64,000 nt of DNA, taken from the NCBI GenBank assembly GCA_964655475.1, contig CAZZMO010000004.1, forward strand, positions 11,377 through 75,376, given 5' to 3'. A program made the position numbers and the translations under genes. The notes below the pieces were generated by a model that saw nothing but the letters and a program-made list of their open reading frames with translations, made no database searches and was not told the origin of the DNA. Shown piece by piece: positions 46,210 to 55,187 of the stretch (positions within the stretch are counted from its first letter, which is position 1; every line of letters begins with the position of its first letter). The DNA is from an uncultured bacterium (GTDB taxonomy: Bacteria > Chlamydiota > Chlamydiia > Chlamydiales > VGMA01).

Positions 46210-47045
46210 TCTTCACCTCCCAAATAATAAATAATCTGTTCTTTCCCTGATTTTGCCTCAACGAGGCATTGTCTCGCAACGCGAATCATTTCTTCGAGAG
46301 AAGGGAAGAAGATCTCTTTTTCTACATCTTGGCTTACGACTCCCATAAATACCTGAGGAGAGGAAAAGGCTTCTTGCCACTCATGGGCAAAAGGGAGGGC
46401 TTTCTTGGCTCCCATTCCGTTGAAAATAAAAATATTGACCCCACTCCCAACAGGGATGATGAGATCGTAGGTTTTGAATGAGGAGGGGATCATCAAGGGG
46501 CCAGAATCAACCATGATGATCGTAATCGCCTCTTTTTTTAAGATCGCTTTTTGGATTTTGAGAGCATCCGTTTTATTAAAAATCATCCTTTTCTTCAGAG
46601 ATTCTTGGCTATTGTTAGGGCGGGTGAGTGGGGAGAGTGTATCGATTTTTTTGTGTGCTTCTTGATATTTTTTTGCATGGGCGAGTTTGATGAAGAGCTC
46701 CTCTTCTTCGAGTGGTTCATGGAGAAGATCGAGGACCCCCGCTTTTTTCAAACTCTCTTGGTAGGTTTTCTTGAGATTCGAAGAGATCACCAAAATGGGG
46801 ATGAAGTGGAGATCTTTGGACTGTTTGAGTTCTTTGCAGAATGGGAGGATTTTTTCAGAAAAATTCTCATCATCAATCACGATTACATCGGTATGCATAT
46901 TGCGAAGGTCTTCTGGCGAAGTCGTTTTCGGAGACATGGTGTAGACATGATATTTTTCAAAGAGCTTATGACGTAAAAAAATGGAGTGCATTTCTGTATC
47001 GCTGATGAGAAGAAGAGTGGGATAGGGATCTCTAAATAGTGTCAT
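46206..47045 (-). CDS. atypical receiver-domain protein with a degenerate GGDEF-like C-terminus
   Basis: REC-like DVIVID...IPILVISS...AGV.D.L.EP; C-terminal MGV...SLEEMI..A...L.EAK..G. Confidence 0.6.
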   Translation of the reverse strand: MTLFRDPYPTLLLISDTEMHSIFLRHKLFEKYHVYTMSPKTTSPEDLRNMHTDVIVIDDENFSEKILPFCKELKQSKDLHFIPILVISSNLKKTYQESLKKAGVLDLLHEPLEEEELFIKLAHAKKYQEAHKKIDTLSPLTRPNNSQESLKKRMIFNKTDALKIQKAILKKEAITIIMVDSGPLMIPSSFKTYDLIIPVGSGVNIFIFNGMGAKKALPFAHEWQEAFSSPQVFMGVVSQDVEKEIFFPSLEEMIRVARQCLVEAKSGKEQIIYYLGGEE

Positions 47046-47407
47046 AGTGACACCTCGGTCAGTATGAGTCGGAAACTTTCTTCAGTAAGAGGCTTTCTAA
47101 GGAAGAGGACGGAGTGTTCTTTTGCCTTTTTTTTATCATCAGGATCGATCGAAATGGTGAGCATGACGATAGGGGAACATAAAGGGATCTCTTTTCGGTA
47201 TCTTGTAAGAAATTGCCATCCATTCATCCGAGGCATATTGATATCGAGTAGAATCAAAGAGGGGGGTGGGTGGATCTTTAAAAAGGAAAGAGCCTCTTCA
47301 CCATCATGAGCTACATCTACTCTGGCGACGAGTCCGCTATGGCGAACAACGTATGTTGTATAGAGATTGGTGTCATCGTCATCATCAATAATGAGTAGGC
47401 TATCCAT
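47042..47407 (-). CDS. single-domain response regulator (Rcp1/CheY-like)
   Basis: Likely start MDSLLIIDDD at 47407; LILLDINMPRMNGWQFL, IVMLTIS, KPL. Confidence 0.88.
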   Translation of the reverse strand: MDSLLIIDDDDDTNLYTTYVVRHSGLVARVDVAHDGEEALSFLKIHPPPSLILLDINMPRMNGWQFLTRYRKEIPLCSPIVMLTISIDPDDKKKAKEHSVLFLRKPLTEESFRLILTEVSL

Positions 47408-53034: not shown

Positions 53035-53425
53035 GCTCTTGATCGTCGATGATGATGAAGATATTTTATTTGTTGTAGAAGCAGCTCTCGAGAGTATGAA
53101 AGAGGTAGAAATTCAATATGCTACTTCTGGTCTTGATGCATTTGAGAAAGCAAAAATATTTCATCCCGATATGATCATCATGGATGTCCTCATGCCCATC
53201 ATGGGAGGGATTGAAGCGCTTCATCTGATAAGAAAAGAGCCACTTCTACAAGAGATTCCCATCATATTTTTTACTGCAAGGGCTCAAGTAGAAGAACTTG
53301 CATTTTACAAAAGTCTTTCAGTACTCGATGTCCTTGTCAAACCTTTTGACGCTCCTAAACTTGCCTTTACCATTGAAAATATGTGGCAACAGTCATTTAA
53401 AACTGGTAGAGAAGAGAGGCGTTGA
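53012..53425 (+). CDS. single-domain response regulator
   Basis: LIVDDDED, DMIIMDVLMP, IPIIFFTA, KPFD. Confidence 0.9.
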   Translation: MKKKPLRKLLIVDDDEDILFVVEAALESMKEVEIQYATSGLDAFEKAKIFHPDMIIMDVLMPIMGGIEALHLIRKEPLLQEIPIIFFTARAQVEELAFYKSLSVLDVLVKPFDAPKLAFTIENMWQQSFKTGREERR

Positions 53426-55187
53426 TATTCCAGTCGCTGTAGGGGAGGTTGTTGTGGAAGTAATGCCCTTCGAGTTTTACTTCCCAAAGATCCTGGAGGG
53501 CGTGGGTGATATTGGCAATGATGAGATTTCCATTCAAAGATTGGCGGTTTGCGGTGAAGAGAAAAGTACCGATCGGTTGAATGAAGTGTTTGGTGAGCTG
53601 CCATACATGCTCATAGTGAACACCAAATGTGGTAGCAGGTTGTAGAGGAATCGCCAAGTAGATCCCCACTTTATTTACAAACTGATCTTGATAAGAAAAA
53701 TAGTTCGTCGTGAGTTCGTGGAAATGGGAATGTTGGAATTGATATTCTCCGCGGAAGTATTTAGAGAGATAGGGGATGTGAGATCTGAGCCAGAGAGATT
53801 CCGTTGTTTGCCAATTATGGATCGAGTCATCAAAGTAGATTTTTCTGAGTGATGCTTCTAGTTCTGGGCGTAAGTTTACATCTGGTCTAAATAAATAGCG
53901 GAGCTCTCCAGTGAGAATCTGTAGTAGATCGGTTTCTGTATAGGTAAAGTTTTTGGTAAAAAAAGATTCAACCCGAACTTCTCCACAGATCAAATGGGGT
54001 GCGTAGCGGTAGATCAGAGCTGTCCCTGGTTCGAATCGATTTGTCGAGGAGAAGGGGAAACTCATGTCCCCAATCGGTGATGCGTGAAAGAGGCGGAGGA
54101 TCAAATCCCACGTCCAACATTTTGCAAAATCGAGAGAAGAGAGAAACGCTCCCCCCTCTTCTTGTACATTGTAGTTAGTCCCTGGGATGTAGATGTTTTT
54201 TTCTTTCTGCTGGTAGTAAAAACCTTGTGCATTGAGATCCCAAGCAAGGGTGATCGGGATGTTGAGTGTCCCTTCTATGTAGAGGTAGTAATCTTTTACT
54301 ACAGGGATTGCAATCGTTGGATCACTCTCTTTAGCCTGAGTATAAGTGCTTGAAAGAAGAAGGGTGGGCTCGATATAAGATTTCACCTCCCTTAGCTCAT
54401 ACCATGTAGGCATATCACTCGGATTTTCAGTCAAAAAGAGGGAAAATTCCTCTTTTGCATCGACAAACTTTCGCTGCCGAACGAGAGCTCTCGCGAGGTG
54501 TTTTTTTGCTGTGGGGCCTGCTTCTCGGTAGAGCTTTTCCGCCTCTTCCCAATTTCCCTCCATCATGTAAATTTGTGCTAATTGGAAGCTTGCTTCTGGA
54601 TCATTGTGCCGAAGCTCCAGACACCGAATAAATTTCTTCTTCGCTTCATCCACTTGATTGAGGCGCATGTAAGCGAGGCCTGTATAGAAAACGATATCGA
54701 TATTTTTCGGAGAACATTCATAGAGCGCTTTAAAAAGTTGCAGACATTCAGGGATATGCTCATTTTCATGAAGCCAATAAGTGCCCACCATTTCTAGTCC
54801 ATGAAAGCTCTGTTTTCCACAAGGATCAATCTGGAAAGCTTTCCAAAACGCTTCATAGGCCTCTACGTAGTCGTGAGTCCAATAGTTGAGATATCCCACC
54901 TGAATGAGAGCGTAGGAAAACTCAGGATCTTTTGCGATGGCGAGATCGAGGTAGCGCTCTGCTTCTTCTGCTTGCCCCGCGAGCATATAGAGAAGGCCGA
55001 GTTCATAAGCATCTTCGGCGCTCATCGGTTCTTGATGATGGAGGAGAAAAATAGGGATCTCCCTTGCAGCATCAGCAGAATAGGGAGGCGGAGTCGACAT
55101 CGGTTCAGGAAGGGGAAAAATCCTAGCAGAAAGCCACAGCGGAAGAAGGAGAAAAAAGAATCTTTTTCGAAGTAGAAGCTCTAGCAT
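53397..55187 (-). CDS. TPR-repeat plus outer-membrane beta-barrel protein (polysaccharide export porin-like, PgaA/YaiO-type architecture)
   Basis: Signal peptide; N-half TPRs; C-half aromatic amphipathic strands ending WNINASLLYQF (BAM beta-signal). Confidence 0.75.
   Translation of the reverse strand: MLELLLRKRFFFLLLPLWLSARIFPLPEPMSTPPPYSADAAREIPIFLLHHQEPMSAEDAYELGLLYMLAGQAEEAERYLDLAIAKDPEFSYALIQVGYLNYWTHDYVEAYEAFWKAFQIDPCGKQSFHGLEMVGTYWLHENEHIPECLQLFKALYECSPKNIDIVFYTGLAYMRLNQVDEAKKKFIRCLELRHNDPEASFQLAQIYMMEGNWEEAEKLYREAGPTAKKHLARALVRQRKFVDAKEEFSLFLTENPSDMPTWYELREVKSYIEPTLLLSSTYTQAKESDPTIAIPVVKDYYLYIEGTLNIPITLAWDLNAQGFYYQQKEKNIYIPGTNYNVQEEGGAFLSSLDFAKCWTWDLILRLFHASPIGDMSFPFSSTNRFEPGTALIYRYAPHLICGEVRVESFFTKNFTYTETDLLQILTGELRYLFRPDVNLRPELEASLRKIYFDDSIHNWQTTESLWLRSHIPYLSKYFRGEYQFQHSHFHELTTNYFSYQDQFVNKVGIYLAIPLQPATTFGVHYEHVWQLTKHFIQPIGTFLFTANRQSLNGNLIIANITHALQDLWEVKLEGHYFHNNLPYSDWNINASLLYQF

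Follow-up and report, generated by a model that had tools for sequence, protein, structure and literature searches.

How might a chlamydial bacterium control the secretion of a polysaccharide, if not through cyclic di-GMP (c-di-GMP)? This question is raised by a gene block at positions 47042-55187 of a stretch of 64,000 nucleotides (hereafter the window; contig CAZZMO010000004.1 of assembly GCA_964655475.1) from an uncultured member of the Chlamydiota. Here, genes for a family 2 glycosyltransferase (GT2), a membrane protein with HEAT repeats and an outer-membrane protein with TPR repeats stand among genes for two histidine kinases, single-domain receivers (REC) and a histidine phosphotransfer (Hpt) protein (Table 1). 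To our knowledge, the synthase-dependent exopolysaccharide systems that have been studied well all use c-di-GMP as their gate, and we know of no report of an export-competent polysaccharide machine in Chlamydiota. In our analysis the locus is best explained as a synthase-dependent exopolysaccharide secretion system under the control of a phosphorelay, the chlamydial member of a widespread REC-HEAT-GT2 family, and we judge this explanation as a whole to be somewhat likely.

The Synthase and the Outer-Membrane Protein

The motifs of the GT2 protein (D94, D168xD170, D273 and Q315-R-V-R-W319) were invariant in an alignment of the window protein with 13 homologues from several phyla. Its best NCBIfam model was PgaC_IcaA (TIGR03937; 111.4 bits, E 5e-32, model positions 14-395 of 407), and a sequence search of the PDB returned BcsA as the only matches. 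An AlphaFold2 model (pLDDT 84) comprises an N-terminal and four C-terminal transmembrane helices. When this model was compared by Foldseek, the top 14 matches were hyaluronan and cellulose synthases (TMq up to 0.67), chitin synthases matched as well, and rank 15 was taken by a non-processive-looking Pyrobaculum mannosyltransferase (6yv7). Based on the NCBIfam, PDB and Foldseek matches, the protein groups with processive membrane synthases and not with soluble or glycolipid GT2s. Motifs, helices and fold match together predict an inner-membrane, processive-type glycosyltransferase with its own translocation channel.

The protein encoded by the convergent gene has a signal-like N-terminus, TPRs at approximately residues 38-272 and, in a confident AlphaFold2 model (pLDDT 89.8), 16 strands at residues 275-595, ending in YQF. 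The alignment used for this model held 16 homologues (14 from a protein search and 2 from the loci of relatives), of which few were named, all of them chlamydial. The top Foldseek match of the model was E. coli BcsC. In VIA, which is independent of Foldseek, it matched 4y25_A ("Bacterial polysaccharide outer membrane secretin", which we take to be the PgaA barrel) with Z 21.8 and rmsd 2.9 (272/290 residues aligned), PelBC with Z 20.3 (333 residues aligned, including the last TPRs) and BcsC with Z 19.1-19.6. The BcsC, PelBC and 4y25_A matches thus predict an outer-membrane β-barrel porin with a periplasmic TPR domain. The barrel alone discriminates poorly, because FhaC, CdiB and OprB score near the exopolysaccharide porins, but the combination of TPRs and barrel does discriminate at the level of the models.

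The initial annotation had read this pair as the anatomy of a synthase-dependent exopolysaccharide system, with a processive GT2 and a β-barrel in the C-terminal half of the TPR protein, and all three points were upheld by the motifs, the fold and database matches and the 16-strand model behind the TPRs. Its comparison of the barrel with YaiO was not. Residues 270-596 gave no match to any Pfam family at E up to 1, including YaiO (PF19413); hhalign against eight TPR-YaiO proteins aligned only TPR columns 126-285; and BLASTP found no similarity between the window barrel and E. coli YaiO. We consider it very likely that the block encodes an exopolysaccharide synthase with its export system.

The Kinases, Receivers and Phosphotransfer Protein

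The list of open reading frames (ORFs) and the Pfam and NCBIfam scans identified all nine genes that had been listed initially (those for the two kinases, three receivers, Hpt, HEAT, GT2 and TPR-barrel proteins) as intact ORFs with the stated domains. Six genes lie on the plus strand, each overlapping the next by 4-38 nt, and the PAS kinase and its receiver are transcribed divergently from the Hpt start. The PAS kinase has an H-box (ASHNLQEPL) and no hydrophobic segment. The second kinase, with the H-box SHEMRTPL, is a multi-transmembrane protein with approximately 7-8 hydrophobic segments in residues 1-260; its residues 1-278 gave no Pfam match, and the sensor is of no known family. The Hpt protein contains the motif HKLRGSSGTYG, its start being ambiguous (48466, or M20 at 48523). 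For the receiver ORF 47042-47572, the true start is likely M56 at 47407 (121 aa), which fits the stop of the PAS kinase gene and overlaps it.

All three receivers carry the acidic pair, the acceptor Asp, the S/T and the Lys; for the receiver 47042-47407, these are visible as DD, D, T and K. A further, 279-aa protein downstream of this receiver does not pass on these residues, because its receiver domain lacks the conserved Lys (HEP replaces KP). In NCBIfam it showed weak matches to PleD (32 bits) and DgcR, extending approximately 50 residues beyond the receiver, and its C-terminal half had no Pfam match. Possibly, the 279-aa protein is what is left of a REC-GGDEF protein; phmmer found no match between it and the REC-GGDEF middle of the fused relay proteins described below. 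Thus, the parts of a His-Asp phosphorelay (kinase H-boxes and ATPase domains, receiver key residues and the Hpt His) are present according to Pfam and the translations, and the tight linkage of the synthase block to a phosphorelay with single-domain receivers, as first claimed, holds. Genome-wide, the locus contains the only Hpt match, two of the three HisKA matches and four of the seven receiver matches.

In the HEAT protein, a single hydrophobic segment (residues 8-26) precedes a K/R-rich stretch, and the HEAT repeats are C-terminal. As a K/R-rich stretch after the transmembrane segment fits the positive-inside rule, we place the HEAT domain in the cytoplasm. The HEAT and GT2 genes overlap by 4 nt on the same strand, and the terminal receiver gene overlaps the HEAT gene by 8 nt. 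The terminal receiver (48767-49144) keeps D12, D13, D58, S83 and K105.

From these parts we propose the following mechanism. The processive GT2 would polymerize a UDP-sugar and thread the chain through its own membrane channel, with the single-pass membrane HEAT protein as its co-subunit, and the TPR and 16-strand porin would carry the polymer over the outer membrane. Control would be exerted without c-di-GMP, by a four-step His-Asp-His-Asp relay of separate proteins. The multi-transmembrane kinase would phosphorylate the adjacent receiver (53012-53425) as the first receiver, and a second input probably comes from the cytoplasmic PAS kinase and the receiver paired with it. The phosphate would then pass to the only Hpt protein of the genome and onward to the receiver 48767-49144, which, having no output domain, would have to act by protein contact. 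Once phosphorylated, it would bind the HEAT protein or the HEAT-GT2 complex and switch polymerization on or off. The order of phosphotransfer, the contact between receiver and HEAT protein, the direction of regulation and the sugar are what we infer. We propose the HEAT protein as a regulatory co-subunit of the synthase and the terminal receiver as the relay output; that this receiver acts on HEAT-GT2 is a tentative assignment, just short of an even chance.

The REC-HEAT-GT2 Module Across Phyla

A scan of genome contigs yielded at least 324 confirmed relatives among 600 stretches, from which the best 80 loci were kept. These belong to Gemmatimonadota, Pseudomonadota, Bacteroidota, Bacillota, Acidobacteriota, Myxococcota, Nitrospirota, Actinomycetota and others. 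The GT2 family, which has more than 4000 homologues, also reaches haloarchaeal plasmids (H1, H2 and H7, from Halosolutus, Haloarcula and Salinirubellus), where identity is 36-38% across 90% or more of the query. HEAT and REC profiles were built from 28 of the 80 loci, the window and relative L011, and were used to search the 73 loci with at least 1.8 kb of upstream sequence. A HEAT gene stands directly upstream of GT2 in 67 of these and a REC gene directly before HEAT in 47, with both in 45; a REC was found anywhere in the locus in 57. By gene order, which defines the module here, the window belongs to it on both counts.

Pfam gave a similar picture, with HEAT_2 in the gene directly upstream of GT2 in 43 of 50 cases (a count that takes in the window and L011). 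Among the 46 next-upstream genes it identified REC in 34, Hpt in 7, the YaiO barrel in 5 and GGDEF in 4. Ten long upstream proteins were scanned; all end in REC, seven contain Hpt and three GGDEF, the latter being strong only in Rossellomorea (L056, 134 bits) and weaker in L060 and L095. The outer-membrane partner in other phyla combines TPRs with a YaiO barrel. On plasmid pMESCI01 of Mesorhizobium ciceri, the PGAP annotation lists a kinase, two response regulators, a YaiO barrel, a HEAT protein and GT2, with Hpt on the other strand. As annotated, this is the full parts list of the window in an alphaproteobacterium, under generic names. Since REC-HEAT-GT2 recurs across phyla, this regulatory wiring belongs to the family as a whole. 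The expected co-occurrence of the genes in other genomes was therefore found, both here and in the chlamydial loci described below, and the wiring, initially thought to be novel to Chlamydiae, is not: the same set is present on the M. ciceri plasmid and the trio in many phyla.

In the full text of open-access papers and bioRxiv, no paper on the REC-HEAT-GT2 family was found. PMC12419801 and PMC12125118 do not concern the module. The literature on YaiO consists, among the matches listed, almost entirely of E. coli PCR markers.

Fusions of HEAT and GT2 would have made a Rosetta-stone argument. A scan of ten long "GT2" ORFs gave no HEAT match at E 1e-4, and the argument was dropped because the N-terminal extensions look like ORFs called too long where the DNA is GC-rich. 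Other extensions were seen in passing. In P0071, P0079 and P0104 (711 aa; Gemmatimonadota), the GT2 ORF is extended by approximately 240 residues, the first of which form a signal-peptide-like stretch. One source labels the 711-aa protein "YaiO family outer membrane protein", and these ORFs are either true fusions of an inner- and an outer-membrane protein or two genes called as one. In a Chryseobacterium (L097, 7929-11354), GT2 is fused to a sulfatase-family domain (PF00884), and a sulfatase-family protein follows GT2 in a metagenome-assembled genome (MAG) of Elusimicrobia (L094, 3837-6239). In these two lineages, the sulfatase-family parts may represent a polymer-modifying transferase.

Protein Contact or Transcription as the Output of the Relay

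The comparative data bear on how the terminal receiver could act. In an alignment of 30 HEAT-adjacent receivers, the S/T and the K-P were kept in 30/30, and the acceptor position is D in 26, Glu in three and Gly in one. The four loci without the acceptor Asp (L019, L034 and L060 with the phosphomimetic Glu, and L049 with Gly) have retained the receiver at its position. Non-phosphorylatable receivers that keep their place fit a role in protein contact, and the idea of a receiver acting through the HEAT protein has strong comparative support, because the order REC, HEAT, GT2 is conserved across phyla. A complex prediction with HEAT residues 38-325 and the terminal receiver (30-row alignments each) gave a score of 0.00 in two runs without controls, which is no evidence either way.

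The same data argue against a different output, in which the two-component genes would regulate transcription, for example through an OmpR-type regulator, the receivers and Hpt serving as relay or phosphate sink and the REC staying off the synthase. A scan of the window revealed an intact regulator of this type (REC and Trans_reg_C) at 29835-30581(-), 17 kb from the locus. Next upstream of it are the genes of two envelope-type proteins, one with LysM (30642-31319) and one of the OmpA family (31316-32008). One of the kinases may have this regulator as its DNA-binding partner. Single-domain receivers often are phosphate sinks, and with seven receiver matches in the genome, the partners for cross-talk are few. 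Against these points stand the REC-HEAT-GT2 order held in 45/73 loci of distant phyla, the receiver as the last domain of fused relay proteins that abut the HEAT gene, and the 4/30 receivers that lack the acceptor Asp and are still retained at the site. In addition, no DNA-binding domain occurs among the 25 listed of the 39 families matched by the 46 next-upstream proteins. We therefore regard a transcriptional output as unlikely.

c-di-GMP Components

Pfam and NCBIfam detected no intact GGDEF, EAL, PilZ, deacetylase or DNA-binding domain in the block, in agreement with the first reading of the sequence. The whole genome (88% complete) has no match to GGDEF, EAL, PilZ or the CE4 deacetylase (PF01522). 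A c-di-GMP receptor domain (PilZ, degenerate GGDEF or PgaD-type) is likewise absent from the locus, MshEN not having been searched for. This bears on the suggestion that the HEAT protein or GT2 is itself a receptor for c-di-GMP or another nucleotide, on which the relay acts via a cyclase, the chlamydial locus then being decayed or silent. GGDEF domains do occur between receivers elsewhere, with 134 bits in L056 and less in L060 and L095, and in 4/46 next-upstream genes. Closer to the window, the chlamydial locus L015 has a borderline GGDEF (24.6 bits), and the 279-aa protein is weakly PleD-like. Such a role is nevertheless improbable, as every gene of the locus is an intact ORF in a genome where the scans returned no GGDEF, EAL or PilZ, and most loci have the terminal REC but no GGDEF.

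Putative Polymer and Substrate

No polymer-modifying enzyme (deacetylase, epimerase or hydrolase) was identified among the ORFs of 39.8-60.2 kb. Beside the GT2 of three chlamydial relatives and of a Legionella adelaidensis plasmid, a nucleotide-sugar dehydrogenase and an NAD-dependent epimerase are encoded (Table 1). The dehydrogenase of these relatives matches the TIGR03026 subfamily; the nearest models are WecC and TviB, under their cut-offs, which hints at an N-acetyl-hexosaminuronic (uronic-acid-type) polymer in the dehydrogenase-bearing loci. In the window genome, neither a dehydrogenase nor an epimerase scored over the cut-off, and a GlcNAc-type substrate for its GT2 is a guess.

The absence of modifying enzymes from the locus could also mean that the product of the GT2 is a glycolipid of the envelope, or a glycan that stays in the periplasm or is linked to the cell wall, and that the TPR-barrel is an unrelated outer-membrane protein. 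The closeness of the barrel fold to FhaC, CdiB and OprB and the mannosyltransferase at rank 15 for GT2 point the same way. This is hard to reconcile with the QxxRW motif, the C-terminal transmembrane bundle and the whole-chain fold match to hyaluronan, cellulose and chitin synthases. It also fits poorly with the recurrence of the TPR-barrel gene in 23/29 chlamydial rows, in varying orientations, and with the TPR-YaiO barrel that takes its place in other phyla. We consider a glycolipid or wall glycan a poor prospect.

Several observations count against an exopolysaccharide system under phosphorelay control. No polymer has been seen. The GT2 score of 111.4 bits lies far under the TIGR03937 equivalog cut-off (422.3 bits), by which the protein is ruled out as a PgaC equivalog, and 16-strand barrels unrelated to polysaccharide export (FhaC, CdiB and OprB) reach Z 18-19.6 in VIA. 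A nucleotide-sugar dehydrogenase that scores over the cut-off and a CE4 deacetylase are both missing from the locus and from the genome (88% complete); as the dehydrogenase is present in relatives, the substrate in the window may differ or be missing. On the regulatory side, a REC directly before HEAT is missing in 26/73 loci, and 16/73 have none within the locus. Partners were assigned by adjacency alone, in a set of two kinases, one Hpt and three or four receivers, and either kinase or both could have their true output in the OmpR-type regulator at 29835-30581(-). Finally, the single genome of the same genus that was searched (86% complete) gave no GT2 match.

Distribution in Chlamydiota and Origin of the Locus

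In a first draw, 8 of 41 genomes of the window's order contained a strong GT2 match. A wider draw gave GT2 in 58/401 genomes at E <= 1e-40, in 39 of 304 high-quality genomes and in 51 of 216 genera. Four related genomes (G034:C2, G012:C18, G019:C20 and G081:C42) have one or two in-frame stops within the GT2 match, which may reflect decaying copies or assembly errors.

We compared 29 chlamydial locus rows, labelled by profile and phmmer; some of the profiles include a few of these loci, and 28 rows are distinct, since L110 and L019 look like the same record. HEAT is present in 27 rows, REC in 24, the TPR-barrel in 23, Hpt in 17 and a kinase in 13, with all six components in 7. The orientation of the TPR-barrel gene varies. 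The Hpt-REC-HEAT-GT2 order of the window is shared by L103-L106 and L109, of which L103-L106 have a convergent barrel or a nearby HK-REC pair (HK, histidine kinase). L103 resembles the window in a divergent pair of HK (349 aa) and REC (132 aa) beside Hpt-REC-HEAT-GT2, and an HK followed by a REC of the 53012-53425 type recurs in the relatives L011, L018, L104 and L106. In another chlamydial sub-clade, the relay is fused into a protein of approximately 800 aa, REC-Hpt-REC-(weak GGDEF)-REC, encoded directly before HEAT. The GGDEF of these fused proteins scores 24.6 bits in L015 (cut-off 23.8) and 14.7 bits in L013, and is not detected in L017. Their last REC is closest to 48767-49144 (55-80 bits), and their middle REC is closest to 53012-53425.

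A quick LG+G4 tree was made of 73 GT2s (65 of the 80 named loci, 7 loci from related genomes and the window), leaving out 15 named loci in which the ORF was truncated or exceeded 560 aa. All ten chlamydial GT2s, drawn from several families, lie on the same side of one branch (SH-aLRT 89, not starred) and are divided by deep internal branches. The window GT2 pairs with that of a Simkania MAG (96, starred; 47% identity), and the rest of the tree largely follows phyla. The GC content of the block is unremarkable (0.41-0.43, against about 0.45). No tRNA or flanking repeats bound the block: the nearest tRNA-Ser lies at 59246, past gidA and dnaB, and only short two-copy repeats occur. The initial annotation had suggested an acquired system. 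Given the tree, the distribution, the ordinary GC content and the lack of bounding tRNA or repeats, the locus rather appears to be an old, patchily kept accessory system of environmental chlamydiae and not a recent import; a single ancient acquisition may have preceded this. That the block is a recently acquired genomic island is highly improbable: the patchy distribution (58/401), the missing GT2 in the same-genus genome, flanks that are not syntenic with relatives and the slightly lower GC would agree with it, but the chlamydial GT2s form one group with deep internal branches in a tree that broadly follows phyla, the nearest sequence is the Simkania MAG at 47% identity, and the block showed neither a tRNA nor an integrase-like ORF nor direct repeats at its flanks.

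Organization of the Locus and its Surroundings

The coordinates of the locus are collected in Table 1. The start of the PAS kinase gene and the long-form start of the Hpt gene overlap back to back (CATG; window 48465-48525). Ahead of the alternative Hpt start (M20, 48523) lie 55 A/T-rich nt in which the palindrome AATTGCAATT occupies 48485-48494, and this region may be a shared operator or promoter. A scan for promoters and terminators over 45.5-55.5 kb was uninformative, with 14 promoter-like and 14 terminator-like sites versus 16.3 and 9.5 expected from shuffles.

The divergent operon ends with a gene for a 144-aa protein (45775-46209(-)), which is translationally coupled to the degenerate receiver gene. 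It had no Pfam or NCBIfam match, and searches of related loci with the 144-aa query found no homologue; it is a doubtful member of the system. The adjoining MnmG/GidA marks the host as chlamydial, its named relatives being almost all Chlamydiota, with one "Verrucomicrobia" label. What looks like a paralogue array lies at window positions 40716-43796 (+), where all of three ORFs in tandem (304, 312 and 289 aa) have matches to beta-propeller lactonase, NHL or YncE-like families. DNA nearly identical to 48466-55187 was found only in runs labelled freshwater metagenome, all 12 runs listed being DNA; the share of its words was 0.96 in two runs of one study, possibly the source, and 0.49 in one run of a second study.

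Table 1. Genes of the locus in window coordinates, followed by the dehydrogenase/epimerase sites of related loci in the coordinates of each locus.
Feature	Position	Strand	Evidence and remarks
144-aa protein, signal-peptide-like N-terminus	45775..46209	(-)	ORF and translation; last small gene of divergent operon, 4-nt overlaps
Degenerate receiver with C-terminal half, 279 aa	46206..47045	(-)	Continues divergent operon; Response_reg 20 bits, below cut-off
Single-domain receiver	47042..47407 (ORF open to 47572)	(-)	Response_reg 59 bits; pairs with PAS kinase
PAS histidine kinase, cytoplasmic	47400..48467	(-)	Pfam PAS, HisKA and HATPase_c
Hpt phosphotransfer protein	48466..48804	(+)	Hpt 34 bits
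Terminal single-domain receiver, 125 aa	48767..49144	(+)	Response_reg 75 bits; immediately 5' of HEAT gene
Single-pass membrane HEAT-repeat protein, 325 aa	49137..50114	(+)	HEAT_2 67 bits
GT2 synthase, 472 aa	50111..51529	(+)	Pfam GT2 families and Chitin_synth_2
Multi-transmembrane histidine kinase, 505 aa	51517..53034	(+)	HisKA 50 bits, HATPase_c 82 bits
Single-domain receiver, 137 aa	53012..53425	(+)	Response_reg 81 bits
TPR and outer-membrane barrel protein, 596 aa	53397..55187	(-)	TPR families; converges on last receiver
Dehydrogenase/epimerase sites	L011 6803-9050; L018 9042-9974; L019 9382-10686; L101 1874-4075		

Comparison With Known Systems

A synthase-dependent exopolysaccharide system is of a known kind; a HEAT co-subunit with receiver input is undescribed in the literature searched. 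Beyond the window, we tentatively raise the idea that a phosphorylated stand-alone receiver, by binding a membrane-anchored HEAT protein, constitutes an undescribed, pan-bacterial post-translational switch of exopolysaccharide synthesis that stands in for the c-di-GMP receptors of Pga, Bcs, Pel and Alg or, in relatives with GGDEF, works beside them; this is possible, if on balance doubtful. Such a receiver-HEAT switch would be a second general logic for the post-translational control of biofilm polymers, and a great many genes that now bear generic names only would gain a function. For the Chlamydiota, it would mean that an obligate intracellular lineage gives most of its two-component genes to the timing of a secreted polysaccharide, which might serve the extracellular stage or the inclusion. 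About one in seven of the order's genomes searched (58/401) would encode an export-competent polysaccharide machine, and the sensors of the PAS and multi-transmembrane kinases point to cues that can be tested.

PgaABCD of E. coli is like the window in its inner-membrane GT2 (about 410-470 aa) with the D,D,D,QxxRW motifs and in its TPR and 16-strand porin. Pga is activated by c-di-GMP binding to PgaC/PgaD. In contrast, the window has no PgaB-type deacetylase, in the locus or the genome, and no PgaD; it has a HEAT protein and a phosphorelay, and its genome has no cyclase. With Bcs and Pel, the window has in common the layout of a synthase, a small inner-membrane regulatory partner and a TPR-porin. 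It differs from them in a synthase without PilZ, in the lack of a PelD-type degenerate-GGDEF receptor and in its control by receivers; moreover, the TPR region of BcsC is far longer than that of the window protein, and PelF is a GT4 enzyme.

The closest relatives are the HEAT-GT2-YaiO loci, such as that of pMESCI01, where the GT2 is an orthologue (35-42% identical across 90% or more of its length) and a transmembrane HEAT gene lies directly upstream. These loci also hold receiver, Hpt and kinase genes, under generic PGAP names. They differ in that the window barrel is PgaA/BcsC-like and not YaiO, and in that the relay is split in the window and fused elsewhere as Hpt-REC-(GGDEF)-REC. In E. coli yaiO-yaiP-yaiS, a barrel, a GT2 and a deacetylase are encoded together according to the annotation, without HEAT or receiver genes. 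We rejected this cluster as a family member, as YaiP matches in the GT-A domain only (26% identity over 219 residues) and YaiO shows no similarity.

For the relay, the KinA-Spo0F-Spo0B-Spo0A pathway of B. subtilis is a multi-step phosphorelay of separate proteins, and CheY-FliM is an example of an output-less receiver that acts by binding its target. The window resembles the Spo0-type relay in its non-hybrid kinases, stand-alone first receiver, separate phosphotransfer protein and terminal receiver. It differs from Spo0 and CheY in the proposed target, which would be a polysaccharide synthase complex and not a transcription factor domain or a motor. PgaD, PelD, Alg44 and the PilZ domain of BcsA are the c-di-GMP receptors of synthase-dependent systems. 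The HEAT protein resembles these small inner-membrane parts in its proposed role, with the difference that its input in the window would be a phosphorylated receiver.

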